A stretch of DNA of 10,475 nt from a virus. Its lineage: Duplodnaviria; Heunggongvirae; Uroviricota; Caudoviricetes. The stretch spans positions 1 to 10,475 of the IMG/VR virus record IMGVR_UViG_2541047124_000005. The stretch is one strand, 5' to 3'. This document shows, piece after piece, positions 1 through 10,475 of the stretch. How positions within the stretch are numbered: position 1 is the first letter of the stretch; every line of letters begins with the position of its first letter. The notes below the pieces were generated by a model that did not search any database, was not told where the DNA came from, and saw only the letters and a program-made list of their open reading frames with translations. The translations under genes and the position numbers were made by a program.

Positions 1-82
1 CATAAGCATCACCCTTGCCGTTGTAAACCCACAGAGTGGTACCGGCACCTTTTACCGGCTCAAGGGGATTTGGTGTTGCCAT
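1..82 (-). CDS. V: major tail protein V, N-terminal 27 codons only (gene continues past the left edge of the window)
   Basis: Minus-strand translation from ATG at 82..80 gives [27 protein letters not shown], which closely matches the lambda gpV N-terminus as I recall it ([27 protein letters not shown]). It sits 7 nt downstream of the gpU-like stop, consistent with lambda order Z-U-V. Absent from the ORF track because it is truncated by the window edge. Confidence 0.75.
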
Positions 83-89
83 ATCGTCC

Positions 90-488
90 TCACATCTCGT
101 AGGTAATTTTCCACAGGAGATCTGCCGATCCCCACATCATAAACTCATCATCCCGGCGGTAGTCATACCCCTGAAGATTCATCTTCAGCAGTAATGCACT
201 GAGCCCGGGAACTGCCTCCAGCGCAGGAAGAATTTTTTCTTCCATCCACATATCCAGTGCCGAGTCCGGTTCTTTTGCCCTGAGAAAAACCTCAATATGC
301 AGTGTCGCCTCCCAGGTTCCCTCATCAACGAACTCGTCAGCAGCAGACGCATCTGTCAGGTAAACAGCAACAGCAGGCAGTTCCTGTTCATCAATAAAAA
401 CCGGGCGACCGTCAAACCAGCTCACCCTCTCAGAAATATTTTCTTTCAGGGCAGACAGAACTGCCGCCCGTATTTCACGGTGTTTCAT
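90..488 (-). CDS. U: tail terminator protein (lambda gpU family)
   Basis: 132-aa [20 protein letters not shown]...[26 protein letters not shown] aligns along its length with lambda gpU as recalled (MKHTELRAAVLDALEKH...GYDYRRDD...ITYEM). A GGGAGG Shine-Dalgarno lies 4-5 nt upstream of the ATG at 488. Position between Z and V homologs is as expected. Confidence 0.9.
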
Positions 489-500
489 ACACCCTCCCAG

Positions 501-1130
501 TCATTTTCTTTTCAGCACCAGGCGTAACTGATGCGTCATGGCTTTCATCATCTGCGCCGGTAATTTTTCCCGGTACATCCGGTCCCGTTCACGTTCAAAG
601 GTTTCTGCCAGCGGTCCGGCAGTCGTAATCTTCACCACTTCGATCGGCAGACGGTGGCGTTTCGGCCTCCCTTTGCTGTCCGCGCCGGTGGATGATGATG
701 CCCACGGCATACGCTGCATCACATGCCAGCGTCCGTTAGCCAGCCGGGTGATAAAGGCGTCCGGGATCCGTCTTTTCCCCACAATCAGCACACTGCCGCC
801 CCCTTTCAGGGCCGCACGCTGTCCTTTCTTTCTCCGTTTTCTGCGGGAAAGTCGAACGCGGGCCTCCCCCAGTTTGATGGCGGGCAGGTTGCCGGTATTG
901 ATGTAAACCTTTGCGTAAACCTTATCCGGTCGTGCCGGACTTAACCGGATGCGGGCACGGATAAGACGACGGGGAACGGCCAGCTCCCTGGCAACTGAAG
1001 AGGCCGTTTTCGCAATAATGGCCCCCGCCACTCGGTTCAGTGTCATGGCAGAGGCCCGGGGAACGGCACGGCGATCAATTGCATCCAGATTTTTCATGGC
1101 CTGCGCCAGACCTTTTATTGCCATACTCAT
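501..1130 (-). CDS. Z: tail completion protein (lambda gpZ family); true start is probably the third codon (ATG at 1124)
   Basis: ORF MSMAIKGLAQAMKNLD...LSRRKRRKKGQRAALKGGGSVLIVGKRRIPDAFITRLANGRWHVMQR... matches lambda gpZ as recalled (MAIKGLEQAV...LSRRRRRKKGQRSSLKGGGSVLVVGNRRIPGAFIQQLKNGRWHVMQR). The first ATG overlaps the upstream stop (ATGA); the ATG at 1124 has AGGAA at better spacing and matches the lambda start MAIKG. Confidence 0.9.
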   Translation of the reverse strand: MSMAIKGLAQAMKNLDAIDRRAVPRASAMTLNRVAGAIIAKTASSVARELAVPRRLIRARIRLSPARPDKVYAKVYINTGNLPAIKLGEARVRLSRRKRRKKGQRAALKGGGSVLIVGKRRIPDAFITRLANGRWHVMQRMPWASSSTGADSKGRPKRHRLPIEVVKITTAGPLAETFERERDRMYREKLPAQMMKAMTHQLRLVLKRK

Positions 1131-1408
1131 TCCTGTTCGACAAAAATCCGGGGTTTACCGTTGTACGTGTCATAACGGGTCACCGTCAGTGTGCGCCCCG
1201 CAAACACAACAACATCATGACGGGCCGGACGGTACCGGGCTGAAAACACCACCAGTGACAACTGGCTGCCCGAAAGCGCCCCCATCTCCGCGGACTCTTC
1301 CTCCGGCATCACGTCGTACACGACGCCGTTAATCTCCGCCTGTTTGCCCATCACCCGAACGGTCGCCACGTCCATCCGGCAACACATTCGCGTAAACAGA
1401 TCAGACAT
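1127..1408 (-). CDS. head-tail joining protein, FII-like (putative)
   Basis: 93-aa ORF in the position lambda gpFII occupies (just upstream of Z). Weak but consistent pattern similarity to lambda gpFII as recalled (DLF near the N-terminus, a GV-F/Y-D-PEE block, and an SL-VF block). Overlaps the upstream gene by 8 nt (ATGTCTGA), typical of translational coupling. Confidence 0.55.
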   Translation of the reverse strand: MSDLFTRMCCRMDVATVRVMGKQAEINGVVYDVMPEEESAEMGALSGSQLSLVVFSARYRPARHDVVVFAGRTLTVTRYDTYNGKPRIFVEQE

Positions 1409-1727
1409 TGATTTTTACCGCCACAGTGGCGCTGTTTGCAGGGGCATTTTCCCAGGCTACCCCCGCTGCCACCGCACCGTCTGCAGCCAGCTGCACAACC
1501 CCGTCCTTCAGATAAACCACCGCGCCGGACTGAATGTCGTCAGCAGACTGTTTGGGCAGCAGGAACACGCCTTCGGCAAAACCGTCACCGGCCTCACCGG
1601 CAGGAATATCGGTAATGGCCACGGCCACCATACTGCCGACCACCACCGCAGCACCGCTCAGGATGGTCTGATCTCCGGCATTCACCAGTTCAATGGTGGT
1701 ACCGTCCTGTACAAAATTTTTCGCCAT
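1401..1727 (-). CDS. small Ala/Gly/Val-rich head protein, DUF2190-like (putative capsid decoration or cement protein)
   Basis: 108-aa ORF MAKNFVQDGTTIELVNAGDQTILSGAAVVVGSMVAVAITDIPAGEAGDG... lies directly downstream of the major capsid gene. Its composition and MAKN-type N-terminus resemble the small DUF2190-family proteins that follow capsid genes in many lambdoid prophages, as I recall them. GGAG lies about 10 nt upstream of the ATG. Confidence 0.5.
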   Translation of the reverse strand: MAKNFVQDGTTIELVNAGDQTILSGAAVVVGSMVAVAITDIPAGEAGDGFAEGVFLLPKQSADDIQSGAVVYLKDGVVQLAADGAVAAGVAWENAPANSATVAVKINV

Positions 1728-1768
1728 AATGCTGTTTCTCCGGACAGCCCCTGTGGGGCTGTTTTTCA

Positions 1769-1792
1769 GGCATAAAAAAAGCCCTTTCGGGC
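1769..1792 (-). terminator. candidate intrinsic terminator immediately downstream of the capsid gene
   Basis: On the minus strand: GCCC-GAAA-GGGC (4-bp GC stem with GAAA tetraloop, plus 1781..1792) followed directly by a U7 tract (plus A7 at 1774..1780). Located 23 nt after the capsid stop at 1815. Short stem, so probably a partial terminator. Confidence 0.4.
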
Positions 1793-1814
1793 AGTGATTG
1801 TGATAACGCGGTTA

Positions 1815-3770
1815 TCAGGCCACCGACGAACGCACCAGCCCGCGCCAGTCAAGTGGTGCCACTCCGGCATCAATACGGATTTTTGTGGCAATGCCGTCAG
1901 TGGTGAAACCTTCCTGCTGATCAATGTATGGCGTGTCCACACCATCCAGCCAGGCCACTTCAATGGTGTCAGTGCCCTGTGCCGCCGCCAGATACCAGGT
2001 TTTCGGGTCTGCCGCATCAAGACGCGCTTCTGCAATCACCTCAGCAAAGTTCTGGATAGGGTTAATGACACCGGCGTTTGCATCCGCCCCTTTCACACTG
2101 GCCGATTTGATGGTCTGGTTCGCCACCGTCTCCAGTGCCACCGGTACCAGCATAAAGGCCGGACGGATATTCAGGGCACGATCGCCTTCTTTCTGCAGGC
2201 GCATCATCTGACGGGCCGCATCCAGTCCGGAAACGGAGATCCCCCCGGTGGCAATATTTTTGTGATCGGCATGGAACAGCGCCTTACCGTCGGACAGTTT
2301 CGGGTTATCCGTCAGCACCTTGTAGACCAGGTCACCAATCGTTGCCTTCGCCGCACGCCCCATCTTCATCGGCACGTCCACCAGCATATTCAGATCATCA
2401 TTGATAATGGCCTGGCGGGTGATGGAGAAAATCTCCCCGTAAGTGGCCAGTGCAATGGTCTCCTTGCGATCTGAGGTGGTGATGTATTTATACTCCGCCC
2501 CCTCACGAACCTGGCGCAGAGAACCAAAACCGCCCATCCCCACGCGATACGCTGTTTTGAAGTCTGACAGGCGTCCCTTACGGGTCCACTTCTGGAAGGT
2601 TTCTTCTGATTCCTCCCAGCCCTGGATCAGCCCCTTGTTCGACACATCCAGCAGAATATTGCCAAAATCAGAGGTGCTGTGCGTCAGCGCCAGCCCGACC
2701 ATCTGCATGGGGTTATAACTGGCCACCCCAATACCGCGCTCCGTCAGTGACATGCGAGCCCATTCACGCAGGGTCATCCCGTTATAGGCGTTATCCTTCT
2801 CGACATTTTCAAATCCGGCACGGGCCAGCATCGCCTGGCGGATCCCGTCCCCCACAAAATTGCCGTTTCCGGCATAAATATGGGCCGGTGTATTTTTGTT
2901 GGTCGGCGAGGACTCCTTGCCCATTTCATTCAGCAGTCGTTCACGGGCCATTTCCAGCGAACAGTCAGGATCAGCCACGCACTGTGCCTGAAGCGTCTGA
3001 TAGCGACCGCCGAACATGGCAAACAGATCGTTAATGCCTGACATGCGGGCTTTCTGTTCTGCCATAACGCGGGCGCGAATGGTCGCCTCATCAGACACTG
3101 CCGGTACCGGTGATGGTTCTGTTACCGCCGGTGCAGGGATTGTCACTGTGGTATCACGCGGGGCACTGTTGCGTGGCGGAGTAATCATGTTTCGGATGGA
3201 TTCCGGCATCTTTTTAAATTCCTCTGTACGTTTTGACTGAATACATGCCATTGCCTCAACGGCGGGTGTCACCTGGTCAGCAAATCCGTGTGCCAGACAT
3301 TCGGCACCGGACATCCAGGTCTCATCCGCCAGCATGGCAGCAATTTCATCGGTGGTTTTCCCGGTTTTCTGTGCATAAGCGGGTAACAGAACCGCCTCAA
3401 CTTTATCGAGCAGGTCGGCATAGGTGCGCATGTCCTCCGCATCACCGCCCGTAAAGCCAAATGGTTTATGAATCATCATGAAGGAGTTTTCCGGCATAAT
3501 GACCGGTTTTCCCACCATCGCAATGACCGACGCCATTGACGCCGCCACACCGTCGACATAAACGGTAATGGACGCACCATGTGTTTTCAGTGCATTAAAA
3601 ATGGCGATGCCTTCAAAGACATCGCCACCCGGTGAATTGATATTGAGATTAATGTGGGTGATATCGCCCAGTGCATTCAGATCACTGATAAACTGCTTCG
3701 CTGTAACACCCCAGAAACCAATCTCGTCATAAATATAAATATCCGCGTCACTCTGGTGACCAGCCTGCAT
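1815..3770 (-). CDS. prohead protease (ClpP/S14-like) fused to major capsid protein
   Basis: One long ORF. The N-terminal region carries a ClpP-like serine protease fold, including a GVAASMAS block (ClpP-type active-site Ser context) and a downstream MIHKP His. A Pro/Ala-rich linker follows (PAPAVTEPSPVPAV), then a roughly 400-aa C-terminal region typical of phage major head proteins. The track ORF begins at 4031, but I place the start at ATG 3770..3768 (MQAGHQSDADIYIYDEIG...), 13 nt after the portal stop, because the upstream 87 codons overlap the portal gene. Confidence 0.85.
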   Translation of the reverse strand: MQAGHQSDADIYIYDEIGFWGVTAKQFISDLNALGDITHINLNINSPGGDVFEGIAIFNALKTHGASITVYVDGVAASMASVIAMVGKPVIMPENSFMMIHKPFGFTGGDAEDMRTYADLLDKVEAVLLPAYAQKTGKTTDEIAAMLADETWMSGAECLAHGFADQVTPAVEAMACIQSKRTEEFKKMPESIRNMITPPRNSAPRDTTVTIPAPAVTEPSPVPAVSDEATIRARVMAEQKARMSGINDLFAMFGGRYQTLQAQCVADPDCSLEMARERLLNEMGKESSPTNKNTPAHIYAGNGNFVGDGIRQAMLARAGFENVEKDNAYNGMTLREWARMSLTERGIGVASYNPMQMVGLALTHSTSDFGNILLDVSNKGLIQGWEESEETFQKWTRKGRLSDFKTAYRVGMGGFGSLRQVREGAEYKYITTSDRKETIALATYGEIFSITRQAIINDDLNMLVDVPMKMGRAAKATIGDLVYKVLTDNPKLSDGKALFHADHKNIATGGISVSGLDAARQMMRLQKEGDRALNIRPAFMLVPVALETVANQTIKSASVKGADANAGVINPIQNFAEVIAEARLDAADPKTWYLAAAQGTDTIEVAWLDGVDTPYIDQQEGFTTDGIATKIRIDAGVAPLDWRGLVRSSVA

Positions 3771-3783
3771 CCTGAACCAGGAA

Positions 3784-5293
3784 TTATTCTTCGGACTGGT
3801 CGTCGGTGTGCTGCGGCTCCTGTCGTTTCGTTGCGGCACTGCTGCCTCCTTTATCACTGGCCGGATCGGTATCAAATACCAGATCCAGCTTGCGGTTTTC
3901 ATCAATTTCGGCCTTGCGCCGACGTTTGACATCATCCGGATTACGACCACCTGCACGTACCCAGTCTGATTCTGTCGCTGCTCCACCACGAATCTGAATT
4001 TTCCAGGCCTCAGCCTCCTTAACAGGGTCAATCCACGGCATCACCGGTCCGGAATACACCGCGGTATACAGTGAAGAACGGTCAAGATCGCGGGGTAGCC
4101 TGATAACACCGGATGCCACAGCCTGTTTCAGCCAGGCACGATACATCGGGCGGGTGACGGCACCAATAAACCAGTCCTGCAGGATCAGGTAGCCATCAGT
4201 GGATTCAACCAGCTCCTGACGCTGGGCGCTGTAAGTGCCGTTATAGTTGCGCGCTGTACTGGAAAAAATTCAGACGACTGCCCGCCGCCACGGCACGCAA
4301 CTGACCATTACGAAAAGTTTCAAGGTTAGGATTGGGGCGATCCGACTTCACCATTCCGATTTCTTCGCCGGGTTTCAGATCGTCGTAAATAATGCCTGGC
4401 TGAATGGTAAGCTCGCGTTCCTTATCCTTGCTGCCATTACCATCCGGTTCATAGCTCTGCCCATCGCCTTTCCGGATGTACATCCCCAGAGCAGCGGCGA
4501 TCCTTGCTGCAGTCAGCTCAGAATCCTCATACTCTTTCAGGGCACTGAGGCGGATCAGCACACCGGACAACAAAGACGTCCCGCGCATCTGGTGCAGACG
4601 GCGAACAAATTTAAGATGCAGCATTCGCTCTGCATCCACTTCTTTGGTTTCCATCTGCCGTCCGGATACGGGACGGCTTTTATACACCAGATATTTTTCG
4701 GGACGCCCCCAGTCATCAACAAACACGCCCTGATTCAGCCTGTTGCTCTCATCACTGGTCATGGGAATAAAGTCTGGCTCGAGCGCCTCCAGCCAGAAAT
4801 GAACACCGGCAGAAGGCGTCAGGCTGTTTATGCGCCCGGAAACCATCTGGGCAAACACCTCACCATCGCGCAGCCAGGTACGCAGCATCAGACGTTCCAG
4901 CATCGGACGGGTAAACTGCCCGGTGACTTCCGGACTGACAGACCATTCACTCCATCGGGTGCGTATCTCCGCTGCCAGATCACGGGCAATGGCCCCATTG
5001 CGTAATACCGGATGTGGCTCGACAATAATCCCGTTTTTCCCCACCACCCGTTCTTCCAGCTTGTCAAATACACCAATAACCAGATCGTGGTTGTTATCAA
5101 GGTAACGGGCCTGCTCACGTAACGACACGGCCCCGTACTGGCTTAACTGGTCGGCAGTTCGGTTTTCCCGCCGGGCTTTGTGTGTCCGCGTCGTTTTTAC
5201 GGCCTCATAAGCCTGGATCACCGCACGGGAACGCAGCCTTGCCGCTTTCCATCCTGGTGAAAAAACGCCAATCACATCATCAAGAATTGCCAT
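3784..5293 (-). pseudogene. portal protein (lambda gpB family), reading frame interrupted by an apparent +1 insertion in a homopolymer run (A6 on plus strand at 4263..4268); genuine inactivation versus sequencing error cannot be decided from sequence
   Basis: Two consecutive track ORFs (4241..5365, 374 aa, and 3784..4146, 120 aa) are in different frames. The upstream frame ends ...AVAAGSRLNFFQYSAQL*. Deleting one T from the T6 run on the gene strand gives ...RLNFSSTARNYNGTYSAQRQELVES... and runs continuously into the downstream ORF, giving a protein of about 502 aa. The restored junction resembles the corresponding lambda gpB segment as I recall it (...SYEQLSRNYAQMSYSTARAS...). Start placed at ATG 5293..5291 (MAILDDVIG...), overlapping the gpW stop as TGATG. 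Confidence 0.8.
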
Positions 5294-5505
5294 CAGAACC
5301 TCGCCAGCCGGTACCCGGGATGCCCCCGTCGTCGTGTAATCAGAGCCGCAAGGCGGCGCTCCCACTCCTGCCGTCCCTGCCGGATCTCAGATAAGTTTTC
5401 CATGGTCATCTGCTGACCATTAAAGGTGACGGATTTTCCGTCCAGCACCGCCATTTCAGCTTCCGTATAACGCTGAATCATGGCTTCGATATCATTCTGG
5501 TTCAT
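5293..5505 (-). CDS. W: head-tail joining / head completion protein (lambda gpW family)
   Basis: Small ORF between terL and portal, as in lambda (A-W-B). The C-terminus ...ITRRRGHPGYRLARF resembles the lambda gpW C-terminus as recalled (...QRRRGPAGFYV). Start chosen at the third codon (ATG 5505..5503, protein MNQNDIEAM...) because GGAGG lies 6 nt upstream of it; the track start at 5511 abuts the SD. Confidence 0.7.
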   Translation of the reverse strand: MNQNDIEAMIQRYTEAEMAVLDGKSVTFNGQQMTMENLSEIRQGRQEWERRLAALITRRRGHPGYRLARF

Positions 5506-7604
5506 AACCATCCTCCGGAAGTCAGCCAGGGGTTAACATCGTCAGTTACTGTTTTCTTCCGTTTTTGTTTTTTAACAGGCGTGGATACCGGTTCCGGTGA
5601 GGGTGACGGTTCGGTACTGTCCGGGACACTCTCCAGCCAGGTTTCCCGGCTCGCCCACCCCGGTGCATCCGGCCAGCGGATCTTTTCGTATCCATGCAGA
5701 ATGACCAGAGCCTCGGCATACACCATCAGGTCAAAAGCTTCGTTGGCACCGCGACCCGGCTTACTCCATTTCCCGTCACTACTCCGCTCTTCATACGTCA
5801 GTTCGTCGTAAAACCAGCTCCCCAGCCAGTCAGGGAAATGCACATAGCCGGGACCTGGAGAGTCACGCCATAACGCGTTATTCACCCGGTCTTTCAGTGC
5901 ATCCGTCTGAAGAAGCCAGAGCGGCACATCACCTGCGGCCTGCGCCCGTCGGCCCGTTCGTCCGGTGTTATCAGGGAATGTACGGGTGATCAGTTTTGCG
6001 CGCCGGATGCTGTCGCCCTTAAACAGGTAAATACGTTTACCAAGGCCATCACGACGGCAACGACGCCAGAATTTATAGGCATTATCAGTGACCCCGTCTT
6101 CACCGCCGGAGTCCACCGCCATTGCCATCAGTCGCATTTGTTGAGAAGGATCGGAGGCCAGCGGCCAGCTTTTATGAAAAACATCCGTCAGCAGGACATC
6201 CCAGTCTTCCGGATAGCTGGCCGGATCAATTCGCTGGCTCTCACCGTCGCTGTCACCGCGCAATGACTGCGTGATGTTGTAACGATCAATAATCCAGCGT
6301 TCGCCACGGCTGCCATAGCCCGTTACCTGAACCACAAAACGGCGATGACGTCCCGCCTGCACATCCACTGTCGCCACAAGGAAATTAACGCCATCCGGCA
6401 CACTGCTGGAAGGAACTGGCTCTGCCCGCTGCTCAAGCAGTTCACTTTTTCGTTGCTCCATGCTGGCGCGGGGAAGATAAGGTAATCCCCAGTCGGTATT
6501 GATAACCGTCTTGAGTGTTTCTTCACTTCCGGTTGTCTCGTATTCCTGTTCTGCAGTAAGCAGTTTGTAAACGAGTTGCGAGAGTGTCTGGTAAGCAGCT
6601 GCCGGACCCTCCATCCAGAATGACGCAATACGTGAGCGTCGGGGATCACCATAACGACTACCATCCGCATTGATGGATTCACCATCCCGCAACCAGACCC
6701 CACGTCCGTTCAGCTCACGTTTTTGTTCAGGCATAATCCGTCCTGAACAGGAAGGACACTGAATATAAGCCGCCTCACTTGCCAGCACGGGATCGGCAAT
6801 ATCACGGAAACCAGCAACCACATCGCCGCAGGGCTGAAAATACTCACCACAGTGTGGACAGGGCCAGTACCAGCGACGGCGATCGCCACGGTTATAGAGC
6901 GACAGTATCCCCGTGGTTGGTGGAGCCTCATGCGGTGAAGTCCGTCGCCATTTCACATCCTTCACATCCCTGCCGGGGGAACTCTCCACCAGCGTCATAC
7001 CACTGGACATAAATGTGGTGGTACGTTTTGAGGCAAGAGAGAAGGCATCCCCCTCGCCATCAATATCTTCCGGAAAACGGTCATAATCCGTCAGCGCCAC
7101 GCATTTATAATCTGATGAGGACATGATATTGACTGACGGCCAGCCGATTTTCAGGTAGTTGCCAGCAAGGAATGTTCTGTCATAAACGTTGTTGTCATTT
7201 TTGTTCGGACTCAGGCGACTGACCACTTCCGGGCTGACGCGAAACGTTCTGGCGAGTCGTTTTTTGGAGTGTTCGCGGGCTTTTTCCTCCGTCATCTGAA
7301 TGATCAGCATATCCGCAGGATCGCAAATCACGTTGTAAATCACCCAGCCGTCAATCAGGCCGATAGTCTTGCCGGTTCGTGCCGGGCCAACAAATATCAC
7401 TGCGTCGTATTCACGCGAGGCCAGGCAGTTCATCGGCTCAATAACATACGGTGCCACCAGCGGATCCCACGGGACTGAGTTCCCGGCCCCCATGGGCACC
7501 CGCATATACTGAGCAACGGCATCAGCAACCCGCATTCGTCTCGGTGCGCGAAGGATATAACCTGAATCGGTTCGTGCTGCCTTTGCGGTTTCCTGATTCA
7601 GCAT
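5502..7604 (-). CDS. A: terminase large subunit (lambda gpA family)
   Basis: 700-aa ORF with a Walker A motif VGPARTGKT (about nt 7365..7388) and a CPHCGE motif matching the ACPHCGE block of lambda gpA. Further blocks resemble gpA as recalled (...WIIDRYNI... versus SWLIDRQII; AFDLMVYAEAL versus ALDCFVYALAAL). The start ATG overlaps the terS stop (TAATG) and is preceded by GGAGGAG. Confidence 0.95.
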   Translation of the reverse strand: MLNQETAKAARTDSGYILRAPRRMRVADAVAQYMRVPMGAGNSVPWDPLVAPYVIEPMNCLASREYDAVIFVGPARTGKTIGLIDGWVIYNVICDPADMLIIQMTEEKAREHSKKRLARTFRVSPEVVSRLSPNKNDNNVYDRTFLAGNYLKIGWPSVNIMSSSDYKCVALTDYDRFPEDIDGEGDAFSLASKRTTTFMSSGMTLVESSPGRDVKDVKWRRTSPHEAPPTTGILSLYNRGDRRRWYWPCPHCGEYFQPCGDVVAGFRDIADPVLASEAAYIQCPSCSGRIMPEQKRELNGRGVWLRDGESINADGSRYGDPRRSRIASFWMEGPAAAYQTLSQLVYKLLTAEQEYETTGSEETLKTVINTDWGLPYLPRASMEQRKSELLEQRAEPVPSSSVPDGVNFLVATVDVQAGRHRRFVVQVTGYGSRGERWIIDRYNITQSLRGDSDGESQRIDPASYPEDWDVLLTDVFHKSWPLASDPSQQMRLMAMAVDSGGEDGVTDNAYKFWRRCRRDGLGKRIYLFKGDSIRRAKLITRTFPDNTGRTGRRAQAAGDVPLWLLQTDALKDRVNNALWRDSPGPGYVHFPDWLGSWFYDELTYEERSSDGKWSKPGRGANEAFDLMVYAEALVILHGYEKIRWPDAPGWASRETWLESVPDSTEPSPSPEPVSTPVKKQKRKKTVTDDVNPWLTSGGWL

Positions 7605-8095
7605 TACTCCTCCTGCTGTAATTCCTCCTCATCATCCGCACCTGCTTCGGTCACCCGCAGGGCTATCTGATCGCGCAGATCATCAATAATGGACTGAACA
7701 CGGCTCACAGCGGCAGGCTGCAGACCACAGTCACGTTCCAGAATATCCGGTAATGTCTCCAGCACCTGCACGACCGCTTTTGCCCAGATGGCAAACTCCC
7801 GTCTGACATCACTGGCCGGAATGAGTTGTGCCGTTTCCTGTTCGAACTTAAGACGCTCACGTTCAGACTGATACCAGGCTTTGCGTTCATGTGGATCCAT
7901 TTCGCCCTCAGCAACCGGCGGTGGTAACCCCATAAATTCAGTCAGAATATCGGTCAACCGGTATAGCTTGAGTTTGTCATGTCCACCAGCGGGACGAATG
8001 TTTTTCAGTCTTGCCACGACAGTCTGGCGGTGCAGACCAGATAAAGCCGCCAGTTGATTAATATTCAGCACCAGGTTTTTCAACTCATGATCCAT
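7604..8095 (-). CDS. terminase small subunit (Nu1-like, N-terminal HTH DNA-binding domain)
   Basis: 163-aa ORF immediately upstream of, and overlapping, terL. N-terminal LNINQLAALSGLHRQTVVARLKN is a helix-turn-helix-like segment as in Nu1-type small terminases; the C-terminus is acidic (DDEEELQQEE). GGAGG lies 4-5 nt upstream of the ATG at 8095. The candidate cos site lies about 180-200 bp upstream, the same spacing as in lambda. Confidence 0.8.
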   Translation of the reverse strand: MDHELKNLVLNINQLAALSGLHRQTVVARLKNIRPAGGHDKLKLYRLTDILTEFMGLPPPVAEGEMDPHERKAWYQSERERLKFEQETAQLIPASDVRREFAIWAKAVVQVLETLPDILERDCGLQPAAVSRVQSIIDDLRDQIALRVTEAGADDEEELQQEE

Positions 8096-8104
8096 ATTTC
8101 CTCC

Positions 8105-8300
8105 GGAGAGCTTTAAACATGCATCGTGCGAACAACTTTAAGAAAACGCGTTCGATGTCGAACAAAAAACACTCAATTCGACATACAAAAAACAAATAAC
8201 CATTAATAATCAATAAGATGCAAAGATGATGGTGGCCGATAAAAATGCAAAAACTAGCCTTTTTCCGCGACGCTCCCGCCCCGTGGCAGGCCACCCCACC
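8105..8300 (-). other. candidate cos site: cosN-like GC-rich core (plus 8265..8286) plus AT-rich cosB-like region with TCGA-containing repeats (plus 8110..8200)
   Basis: On the gene strand the sequence reads ...CCTCCCGGTGGGGTGGCCTGCCACG GGGCGGGAGCGT CGCGGAAAAAGG..., which parallels the lambda cos junction as I recall it (...TTTCCGGTGATCCGACAGGTTACG GGGCGGCGACCT CGCGGGTTTTCGC...). The 12-mer GGGCGGGAGCGT (plus 8270..8281) differs from the lambda cohesive end at 4 positions. Between it and terS lies an AT-rich stretch with A-tracts and repeated TTCGA/TCGAAC motifs (8126..8136, 8150..8163, 8177..8193), including the palindrome GTTCGA-TG-TCGAAC, plausibly terS-binding R elements. Confidence 0.45.
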
Positions 8301-8703
8301 GGGAGGAGCCGTCAGCCTGAAAGCCATGACGAACGTCTGATACAGCCCTTGCATGAATGGCATCGGGATAATCCAGAAAGGAATAGCATCGACCCACAAG
8401 AATCTGTGTGAGTGTCCTGTTTCTTCCACCCCCGCACAGGACTGGCGAGCATGAGGGACAAACCCGCGAATCATTAGCGCGGTAAAAACCCGGTGTGCAT
8501 CGTTTTTGATTATTCCCGCACACTCGCGCAGAAGGAGTTCCCCGTCGGGCTACGGTCATGGTTAATGCGGGAATACAGCGACGATACAGCGCATGATGTG
8601 TCAGGCTTGAATACCTTTATCCGTTAAAAGGGATATCAGTTAAGTTATCCCGTGTAGGGTATAAGCCATTATCAAGCCCACCAGTAGATGGGCTTTGTAA
8701 TGG

Positions 8704-8961
8704 CTACTTCGCTTTTGCTTCCGCTCGCTTACGCCGGCGCTCTTCTTTCCTCTCGGCTTTTGCCATGTCCATGAATGCCTGCATGATCGAGTTCCGCATC
8801 ATGTAGCTAACAAAGTGATGATTGACACAGCCGTTGAGGCGCAGCTGCTCGCCAAACTCATCCACCGAGGCCAATGCTTCCATCATACCCTTCTCGCCTT
8901 TCATGAACTCTGAGAAGTCGCGCCCCGCTCTGGAGGCGCATTCAATGACACGATCACTCAT
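8704..8961 (-). CDS. hypothetical small protein (85 aa), or frameshifted C-terminal part of the upstream KilA-N-like gene
   Basis: ORF MSDRVIECASRAGRDFSEFMKGEKGMM...AKAERKEERRRKRAEAKAK with a highly charged Lys/Arg/Glu-rich C-terminus. Its ATG (8961..8959) overlaps the stop of the upstream ORF as ATGA. No family recognised with confidence. Confidence 0.4.
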   Translation of the reverse strand: MSDRVIECASRAGRDFSEFMKGEKGMMEALASVDEFGEQLRLNGCVNHHFVSYMMRNSIMQAFMDMAKAERKEERRRKRAEAKAK

Positions 8962-9455
8962 CCCGGAAGCCCGGGGATCGAAATCTGCAACTGGTTAGCC
9001 AGGGAGTTAATTTCAGCGATCAAACCAGGTTTCGTGTAGCGCCATGCCGCGAGGCCTTGTCCACAGAAGCTCGCCATGTCTTTTTTCTGATCAAACTCAT
9101 GACATTTCATGTTGAGCTGCGCACTTAAGCTGTTCCGATGATGAAGCTCTCCGGTGAAGTAATCATCGAGGACTTTATAGGCTGCATATTTAAATCCGGG
9201 GTTTAGCCATGCTGCGTAATCATAAGCAACGAACTTTCCGCCATAAGTTCCACCGTGCGCACCGCGTTCCGTAAAAACCACAGATTCGTGGTTTTTCTCC
9301 AGCTCAGCCAAGAACTCTTTGGTCTGCTTGTTTCGCAGGTAGTGGTACGGAGATTCAGATTCACTTTTACCACTGGCTTTCCACATATCAGTGAGGCAGA
9401 TCATGCCATCTTCACCGATACGGATTGGTTGATTGAAGAGGGTTAATGATTTCAT
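8958..9455 (-). CDS. KilA-N domain-like protein (accessory gene between the lysis cassette and cos)
   Basis: 165-aa ORF MKSLTLFNQPIRIGEDGMICLTDMWKASGKSESESPYHYLRNKQTKEFLAELEK...GGTYGGKFVAYDYAAWLNPGF... The pattern (segment ending in G-x-I/Y, then L-T/N-D-hydrophobic-x-K-A-x-GK, then W/YLR-x-x-x-T-x-EF, then a G-T-W/Y-hydrophobic...A-x-W-x-x-P-x-F block) matches my recollection of the KilA-N/APSES-type domain. AGG lies 8 nt upstream of the ATG. Confidence 0.5.
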   Translation of the reverse strand: MKSLTLFNQPIRIGEDGMICLTDMWKASGKSESESPYHYLRNKQTKEFLAELEKNHESVVFTERGAHGGTYGGKFVAYDYAAWLNPGFKYAAYKVLDDYFTGELHHRNSLSAQLNMKCHEFDQKKDMASFCGQGLAAWRYTKPGLIAEINSLANQLQISIPGLPG

Positions 9456-9570
9456 AGCGTGTACCTACTCTTTGAAATGAACCTTTGCCGCACAGGAAAC
9501 CAGCCCACCGAGGCTCGCCAGCACTAACTGGTATCCTCAAAGGCCCATTCCAAAGGGGCAGGTTCGGTGT

Positions 9571-9597
9571 AAAAAACATGCGTTGCGGTACGCATTT
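9571..9597 (-). terminator. candidate intrinsic terminator (second of two tandem terminators downstream of Rz)
   Basis: Minus-strand RNA: AUGCGU-ACCGCA-ACGCAU (6-bp stem from plus 9578..9583 and 9590..9595, 6-nt loop) followed by G and a U6 tract (plus A6 at 9571..9576). Confidence 0.4.
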
Positions 9598-9600
9598 ATT

Positions 9601-9625
9601 GCAAAAAGCCCCGCATCGCGAGGCT
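9601..9625 (-). terminator. candidate intrinsic terminator (first of two, about 33 nt downstream of the Rz stop)
   Basis: Minus-strand RNA: AGCCUCGC-GAU-GCGGGGCU (8-bp stem including one G-U pair, 3-nt loop) followed by UUUUUGC (plus aaaaa at 9603..9607). Confidence 0.5.
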
Positions 9626-9657
9626 CATTAAATGGACTTTGTGATTTGCAAAAAAAA

Positions 9658-10095
9658 TTATTTCAGGCATTGCGTCCTGATGTACTCCTGCAGGTAGTTA
9701 ACCTGCGCGGTTATCTTGTCGATTCCACCTCGGAGACGGTAATAATTGAGTTCAGCATCTGCTGTAAGTCCTGGGCTTTCTCCATCGCCCATGCTGCTGG
9801 CTCCGGTCGTTGACTTTGCACAGGTGGCGGAGACTTGCAGGCGCTTACGCCCAGCAGAAACATCAGCACGGAGACTTTCGATAGTCGCATTAGCATCAGC
9901 AAGCTCCTTTGTGTATCTGGCGTCAAGTTCTGCTACATCACGTTGCCGCTTCTGCATATCAGCGATGATGGATGTGGCTTTATCGCGCTGCTCTTTGTAG
10001 GCGATGGCGTTATCACGGTAATGATTAACAGCCCATGACAGGCAGGCGATAATGCAGATAACCAGAGCGGAGATAATAACGGTTACCCTGCTCAT
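9658..10095 (-). CDS. Rz: i-spanin Rz (inner-membrane spanin subunit)
   Basis: Translation from ATG 10095..10093 gives [39 protein letters not shown]..., near-identical at the N-terminus to lambda Rz as recalled ([39 protein letters not shown]...). N-terminal TM segment followed by a charged coiled-coil-like region. The track start at 10107 is a GTG with no room for an SD; the ATG at 10095 is preceded by GGGGG at 5 nt and overlaps the endolysin stop (ATGA). Confidence 0.9.
9711..9896 (-). CDS. Rz1: o-spanin Rz1 (outer-membrane lipoprotein), entirely embedded in the +1 frame of Rz
   Basis: Track ORF 9711..9926 lies wholly within Rz in another frame. From the internal Met at 9896 the product is [20 protein letters not shown]|[16 protein letters not shown]...: short basic n-region, hydrophobic core, lipobox-like VSAC, then a Pro-rich mature region as in lambda Rz1. 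Exact start (9896, 9890 or 9926) is uncertain. Confidence 0.7.
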
Positions 10096-10475
10096 TGTTG
10101 CCCCCACAAACAGACTTCACGCTCAATCTCGCGGCGAGTCATCAGCCCTTTCCATTGCTTACCGCCAGCGTATGTCCAGCGCCGTAGCTGATCACATGCG
10201 CCTTTGATATCGCCCTGGTTTATTTTGCGAAGAAGCGTCGATGTTCTGAAATTGCCAGCGCCCACGTTGTAAACGAACGAGTAAAGAGCGCCGCGCGTTG
10301 TTTCCGGTATATCGACGTTGATGTACGGGTTAATTTGTCTGGCGACCGTGGCAAGGTCTTTATTCAGGAGGGCTTTGCATTCTGCTTCGGTATACGTTTT
10401 ACCGGGAATGATGTCTTTTCCGGTGTGTCCGTGACATACAGTCCATACGCCAACGATATCTTTGTATGGTATGTA
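10092..10475 (-). CDS. endolysin, phage lysozyme type (GH24, T4 lysozyme / P21 R family); C-terminal 127 codons only, 5' end beyond the right edge of the window
   Basis: Minus-strand translation from the window edge is open for 127 codons to TGA at 10094..10092: [127 protein letters not shown]. The G[11 protein letters not shown] block and overall layout match the phage lysozyme family (compare P22 gp19 TIGVGHTGK). Not in the ORF track because no start codon lies within the window. Confidence 0.85.

Follow-up and report, generated by a model that had tools for sequence, protein, structure and literature searches.

A split portal gene in the lambdoid prophage Sp3/CP-933K of Escherichia coli O157:H7 and a mosaic draft contig that carries it

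The closest described counterparts of the portal gene studied here are found in phage lambda, in mEp460-like phages and in prophage Sp3/CP-933K of Escherichia coli O157:H7. For the lambda portal protein gpB, a wing (residues 24-249 and 368-452), a stem (250-279 and 343-367), a clip (280-342) and a crown (453-511) are described, with a tunnel loop near Gln379 (PMC10721106). A portal protein of this family is expected to be encoded by one uninterrupted frame, from the wing through to the crown and with the tunnel loop included, and to form a dodecameric ring at a single vertex of the capsid. Phages mEp460, cdtI, Ayreon, Tritos, HannyBb and PhiR47_1 carry such an uninterrupted portal gene, which is 98.3-99.2% identical to the one described below and one base shorter. 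Their deposited records are complete genomes and give laboratory E. coli as the host (K-12 in the case of Ayreon).

Prophage Sp3 was studied by Asadulghani et al. (2009), who scored its portal, integrase and general recombination functions as 'D' (defective) and its repressor, antirepressor and replication functions as absent (PMC2669165). After induction, no excision occurred, and neither circularisation nor replication nor packaging was observed (PMC2669165).

Here, we analyse a stretch of 10,475 nucleotides (the window), which is the entire 10.5-kb draft contig AVRP01000082.1 of the draft assembly GCA_000462165.2. Its portal gene is split in two. We assign a probability of about 0.93 to the following reading as a whole: the split is a fixed loss-of-function mutation, G to AT, in the portal gene of the lambdoid prophage Sp3/CP-933K of typical O157:H7. 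All coordinates are listed in Table 1.

Table 1. Coordinates of genes, lesion and junctions within the window.
Feature	Position	Strand	Remarks
Lesion	4263..4269	-	A (4269) + T6 (4268..4263); intact alleles have G + T5; net +1 nt
Portal 5' fragment	4241..5293	-	350 codons + TAA; ATG 5293, premature TAA 4243..4241; from translation
Portal 3' remainder	3784..4269	-	~159 codons + TAA 3786..3784, open in the +1 frame
ATG ORF of 120 aa	3784..4146	-	lies inside the portal 3' remainder
gpW-like head-tail adaptor	5293..5511	-	TGA overlaps the portal ATG (ATGA); mEp460 homolog annotated 'head-tail adaptor'
Large terminase subunit	5502..7604	-	700 aa, intact; PF05876, PF20454
Nu1-like small terminase subunit	7604..8095	-	163 aa, intact; DUF1441
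ClpP-like prohead protease/major capsid fusion	1815..3839	-	674 aa; PF00574 + PF25209
Sp3-identical block	3289..8675		100% to CP-933K/Sp3 of EDL933; first mismatches 3288 and 8676
Crossover interval, 32 nt common to both parents	3289..3320		Sp3-type <-> EC4115 1.76 Mb type; inside the ClpP domain
Crossover interval, 104 nt	8572..8675		Stx2c-type lysis region <-> Sp3-type; upstream of the Nu1-like gene

The two portal fragments

An earlier reading of the sequence alone (the sequence-only reading) had proposed that the portal frame is broken at a six-nucleotide homopolymer, that the rest of the gene continues in another frame down to 3784, and that both ORFs are halves of one gene. Translation confirms the two frames. 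The gene strand reads ...CTG AAT TTT TTC CAG TAC AGC GCG CAA CTA TAA, i.e., the homopolymer is T6 on this strand and A6 at 4263..4268 of the plus strand, and the ORF from ATG 5293 reads ...AAGSRLNFFQYSAQL. A frame scan finds the 3' remainder opening right after TGA 4272..4270. Within the fragment, residues 1-343 are portal sequence (with Asn342 for the ancestral Ser342), while residues 344-350 (FQYSAQL) are out of frame, which gives the truncated product the terminal peptide ...SRLNFFQYSAQL. If one T is taken out, translation yields a single ORF of 502 aa from 5293 to 3784.

The frame-restored protein spans positions 3-354 of the PF05136 profile (Phage_portal_2; 7e-81, 272.5 bits). Taken by itself, the 5' fragment still covers positions 3-324 of 354 (8e-74, 249.3 bits), and both exceed the curated gathering cut-off of 32.9 bits. 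For the 120-aa downstream ORF, the profile search returned no Pfam family match of its own. A BLASTP alignment with lambda gpB crosses the junction (portal residues 235-440 against gpB 244-474, ~22% identity over 231 aligned residues), and the solved portals 8vhx and 8k38 also align over it. The gpB segment SYEQLSRNYAQMSYSTARAS, which the sequence-only reading had quoted for comparison, is genuinely part of lambda gpB, starting at residue 369. Since one homolog, be it PF05136, gpB or the PDB portals, covers both pieces, the two ORFs are, judged by homology, halves of one lambda-family portal gene. With its frame broken and its product predicted to lack the crown and the second of the two wing segments, this gene is classed as a pseudogene of the family. 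Homologs that end at ...FFQYSAQL next to a separate 120-aa gene would have spoken for two independent genes; the relatives are uninterrupted instead.

The surrounding module keeps the order known from the lambda family, i.e., small terminase, large terminase, W adaptor, portal, protease/capsid, based on ORF order and on the annotation of homologous loci. The protease/capsid fusion gene has a putative GTG start after a perfect AAGGAGG Shine-Dalgarno motif, such that its first 56 nt would lie within the portal 3' end (3784..3839). The annotation of mEp460 starts this gene at an ATG just past the portal stop (window 3770) rather than at GTG 3839.

Nature and reality of the allele

Alignments show that four intact relatives, namely O55:H7 DEC5D, O157:H- 493/89, the bovine strain 20.1 and phage mEp460, read CTG AGT TTT TCC where the window reads CTG AAT TTT TTC C. 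That is, the window has A for G at gene position 1025 and an additional T at position 1026, where the relatives show a gap. Since all intact relatives examined, viable phages like mEp460 among them, carry AGTTTTT, the lesion is, by alignment, a G-to-AT change that combines a substitution with a 1-nt gain and turns AGTTTTT into AATTTTTT; it is not an extension of T5 to T6, and the ancestral residue is Ser342 rather than Asn. Removal of a single T does restore the 502-aa ORF, as had been claimed, but it does not recover the ancestral sequence of the four aligned relatives, and the mutation is thus not a simple extra T. Both conceivable intermediates, AG+T6 as well as AA+T5 (which equals the simply 'repaired' sequence), are absent from 5,426 complete E. 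coli genomes.

To place the allele among other genomes, we used an 81-mer centred on the T6 run. It is found exactly in 287 of the 1,851 matching complete E. coli records, and all of these 287 that name a serotype name O157. Among the other 1,564 records, all sampled rows (33/33) are one base shorter and thus in frame. For the 1,701 nt around the portal, at least 30 O157:H7 genomes show 100% matches among the matches listed, including the independently sequenced genomes of EDL933, EC4115, TW14359, Xuzhou21 and the Sakai lineage. Gene callers start the truncated product at the upstream GTG 5365; in this 374-aa form, its exact sequence occurs in 6,533 indexed blocks of public assemblies, 464 of which have contigs >1 Mb. 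The T6 allele is one invariant allele and was found only in genomes that resemble typical O157:H7. It is absent from the phage collection, where the best match reaches 99.2% and all matches are one base shorter. Neither the sampled rows of the complete E. coli records nor the phage collection yielded a split portal outside of genomes with this exact allele.

These observations bear on the suspicion that the split is a homopolymer sequencing or assembly error, such that the true gene is in frame and the phage module functional. A break at a 6-nt homopolymer within a short draft contig is where such an error would be looked for. However, the allele is shared by 287 complete records (Sakai, EDL933, EC4115 and TW14359 included) and by thousands of draft assemblies, the adjacent G-to-A difference would not be produced by a homopolymer miscount, and the simply 'repaired' sequence is carried by none of the 5,426 complete E. 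coli genomes. Given the same allele in so many records, we reject the error, which we consider next to impossible. The sequence-only reading had left sequencing error and defective prophage side by side; it is the latter that is right, with the allele fixed in Sp3/CP-933K of O157:H7 and Sp3 published as defective. As far as sequence comparison can tell, the split is a real, inherited inactivating mutation.

A real split could still be bridged. Slippage of the ribosome into the +1 frame (tRNA-Phe moving from UUU to UUU) or transcriptional slippage on T6 might make enough full-length portal protein. A +1 shift anywhere within the 27-nt overlap from TGA 4272..4270 to TAA 4243..4241 would indeed yield the full-length protein, and the T6 run would presumably let tRNA-Phe re-pair. 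Programmed +1 frameshifting goes along with a shift site and a two-frame arrangement that are conserved among homologs. Here, the 33 sampled non-T6 rows (of the 1,564 records) as well as the aligned relatives are all T5 and uninterrupted, and the T6 allele occurs only in genomes like those of typical O157:H7. That is, the two-frame arrangement is conserved in none of the relatives examined, which argues against programmed recoding. Inspected by eye only, the codons of the shift site (UUU UUC CAG) include no stop or obviously slow codon, and no clear Shine-Dalgarno-like stimulator (AGGAGG) is seen upstream. In addition, Sp3 DNA is not packaged in Sakai (PMC2669165), and an excess of truncated subunits would probably disturb ring assembly. 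We thus regard sufficient recoding as very improbable, while rare +1 slippage on the T6 run could leave traces of full-length portal.

The split might also be functional, i.e., the N-terminal fragment or the 120-aa ORF might be kept for a purpose of its own, e.g., as a dominant-negative subunit that poisons superinfecting mEp460-like phages. The truncated ORF is perfectly conserved in all carriers. Yet clonal descent explains this conservation, the whole 5.4-kb block being identical; the 120-aa ORF lacks a family match of its own; and no split portal turned up beyond the genomes with the exact allele. A functional split is therefore most unlikely in our view. We give just as little credence to a more specific variant, in which O157:H7 has co-opted the fragment, perhaps together with slippage-derived traces of full-length protein, as a dominant-negative agent against incoming or co-resident lambdoid phages of the mEp460/Sp type. 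If it were true, the 'dead' gene would help to decide which members of the O157 prophage pool can be mobilised.

Prophage context and the mosaic contig

The lesion lies in a 5.4-kb block that is identical to Sp3/CP-933K and contains the Nu1-like gene, the terminase, W, the portal and the start of the protease/capsid gene. In Sakai, the window matches within the annotated prophage Sp3, with coverage and identity equal to EDL933. CP-933K of EDL933 adjoins ybhC and carries lpxR, nleB2, nleC and nleH1-1 as cargo; the contig itself ends inside the prophage. Outside of the window, its integrase is frameshifted and bet is truncated, and it is without the gam-to-ninB genes (N, cI, cro, cII, O and P included) that are found between bet and ninE in the O55:H7 ortholog. 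In its Sp3/CP-933K context the portal lesion is therefore not the single lesion of which the sequence-only reading had spoken, given that integrase, bet and the immunity and replication genes of Sp3/CP-933K are affected as well.

The split is already visible in current annotations. In RefSeq, Sakai has ECs_0826 (374 aa, 'hypothetical') and the pseudogene ECs_0827 'phage portal protein', which is the 3' piece. In EDL933, PGAP calls WP_010904538.1 for the 5' piece and a second 'phage portal protein' CDS for the 3' piece. The 5' fragment of the window, read from GTG 5365, is identical to both WP_010904538.1 and ECs_0826. Since the Sp3 portal is published as defective and annotated as a pseudogene, the defect was already known: the portal split is an ordinary pseudogene of a known defective prophage.

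Some side observations concern other parts of Sp3. Table 1 of PMC2669165 scores the 'Head' of Sp3 as absent. Current annotation and Pfam assign to it a ClpP-like protease/major capsid fusion (PF00574 + PF25209) and a decoration (cement) protein, such that, contrary to the 2009 score, a head module is present but not lambda-like. In the O157:H7 assembly GCA_008931185.1 (CP032811.1), an IS3-family transposase gene (404 aa; 18219..19432 of our extract) sits at the position of the Sp3 tape-measure gene, which looks like a further, strain-specific lesion.

The window as a whole is not Sp3. We rejected an assignment of its full length to Sp3/CP-933K, because the reverse-complemented window fails to match the EDL933 locus outside of 3289..8675. 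In bins of 200 nt, identity to Sp3 is ~50-85% for 1..3275 and near zero for 8676..9675, and the flanks of Sp3 type (lysis genes; 3' part of the capsid gene and tail genes) do not occur in the window. Instead, positions 1..3320 match another O157 prophage (EC4115, at 1.76 Mb; 99.9% identity), which itself has an intact portal, and positions 8572..10475 are 99.9% identical to the lysis region of an Stx2c prophage. The protease/capsid gene of the contig is thus a hybrid of Sp3-type sequence and that of another prophage. The Stx2c prophage of FDAARGOS_293 has an HK97-like portal gene (extract 16595..19341), which is unrelated but likewise annotated as 'frameshifted'.

The 5,426 complete E. coli genomes contain no locus that spans 80% of the window, and they match neither junction exactly: the best match is 98.2% for the 221-nt query over 3289..3320 and 99.1% for the 331-nt query over 8572..8675, the latter in records without an O157 label. 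Only one other contig, MJIJ01000138.1 (GCA_017116905.1; 1..11009), was found to encode the hybrid capsid protein. This contig has the same portal lesion, the same junction at 3289..3320 and Sp3-type lysis genes; within the Sp3 block it departs from the window by 2 SNPs (window 5704 and 4973), and its tail genes Z and U differ at many positions. All other listed contexts of the truncated portal in further assemblies (8/8) are of Sp3 type.

Such a mosaic may be an assembly artefact or a real recombinant between prophages. Among the matches listed, sequences of the 1..3320 type recur at 2-6 places per O157 genome and those of the 8572..10475 type at 3-4, and both AVRP01000082.1 and MJIJ01000138.1 end just beyond gpU. 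Since a single-copy Sp3 core is joined to multi-copy flanks in contigs that end past gpU, an assembler path into collapsed repeats is the somewhat likelier origin, while a real inter-prophage recombinant is the less probable one of the two. Either way, the mosaic does not touch the lesion, which sits ~950 nt within the Sp3-identical block. Because the contig is mosaic, the prophage context of the lesion in this strain is uncertain. The same holds for the earlier statement that all other genes are intact: they are open and their lengths match those of annotated homologs, but in a mosaic contig this says little on one real element.

Origin, consequence and relation to known systems

The prophage of O55:H7 DEC5D (NZ_CP038386.1) is located at ybhC, has the same nleB2/nleC/nleH1-1 cargo and encodes a 502-aa portal protein; its integrase and early region are intact. 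Over the 5,387-nt Sp3-identical block it differs from the window by 5 substitutions and a 1-nt gap. As this orthologous prophage has the in-frame allele, the lesion postdates the split from O55:H7. Read from these alignments, the mutation took place in the line that led to typical O157:H7, once O55:H7 had branched off, and has since been inherited clonally. Independently, DEC5D has a head-gene lesion of its own: in its ClpP-protease/capsid fusion gene (NZ_CP038386.1, extract 20467..22494), codon 334 has changed from CAG to the nonsense codon TAG.

In the sorbitol-fermenting (SF) O157:H- strain 493/89 (NZ_CP038412.1), the portal of the ybhC prophage is in frame as well. Because it is 1.7% diverged from that of Sp3, the portal module may have been exchanged in this strain. 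Within the 38231-nt extract, this prophage shows no annotated lesion in integrase, repressor, O/P, terminase, portal, capsid or tail genes, and its early region has different immunity genes plus a HicA toxin.

What the truncation would entail can be estimated from gpB. Domain limits were taken from PMC10721106 and transferred via the 22%-identity alignment, in which the fragment ends at about gpB residue 370. The G-to-AT change adds one base and shifts the frame, and translation is predicted to stop 8 codons on, leaving a fragment of 350 aa. This fragment would retain the first wing segment at the N terminus, the two stem helices and the clip, but neither the second wing segment with the tunnel loop nor the crown. 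We do not expect it to assemble into a functional dodecamer, such that the module would be unable to nucleate proheads or to package DNA. The downstream protease/capsid gene is probably still translated, since its GTG 3839 lies behind AAGGAGG, a strong ribosome-binding site of its own that would allow for independent initiation. The portal lesion is one of several in a prophage that is retained in the chromosome with its effector cargo.

The importance of these results is small beyond correct annotation. With the reading favoured here, the portal lesion is among the documented defects that keep the effector-carrying Sp3/CP-933K (nleB2, nleC, nleH1-1, lpxR) locked into the O157:H7 chromosome. 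The analysis settles the split as genuine and clonal, corrects the event to G to AT on AGTTTTT and dates it after the O55:H7 split. It also carries a warning: short draft contigs of O157:H7 prophage regions can mix several resident prophages, and statements that all other genes are intact are unsafe when made from such mosaic contigs.

Compared with known systems, the portal pieces of Sp3 (ECs_0826/ECs_0827) and CP-933K are the same over the 1,701-nt region, at 100% and with the lesion included. The difference is in the surroundings: in all complete genomes examined the block sits in Sp3 context, whereas in the window it is joined to two other O157 prophages. The portal genes of the mEp460-like phages and of DEC5D are 98.3-99.9% identical at the nucleotide level and share the gene order. 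When one T is removed, the portal protein of the window has 502 aa, as above, and 2 residues that differ from these relatives. They read AGTTTTT (Ser342) and are uninterrupted, while the gene of the window is split. Lambda gpB (8k38; PF05136) belongs to the same Pfam family, is colinear over the frameshift site and is likewise encoded between W and the protease gene. Downstream of the portal, lambda has the separate head genes C, Nu3, D and E, in contrast to the ClpP-protease/capsid fusion of the window.
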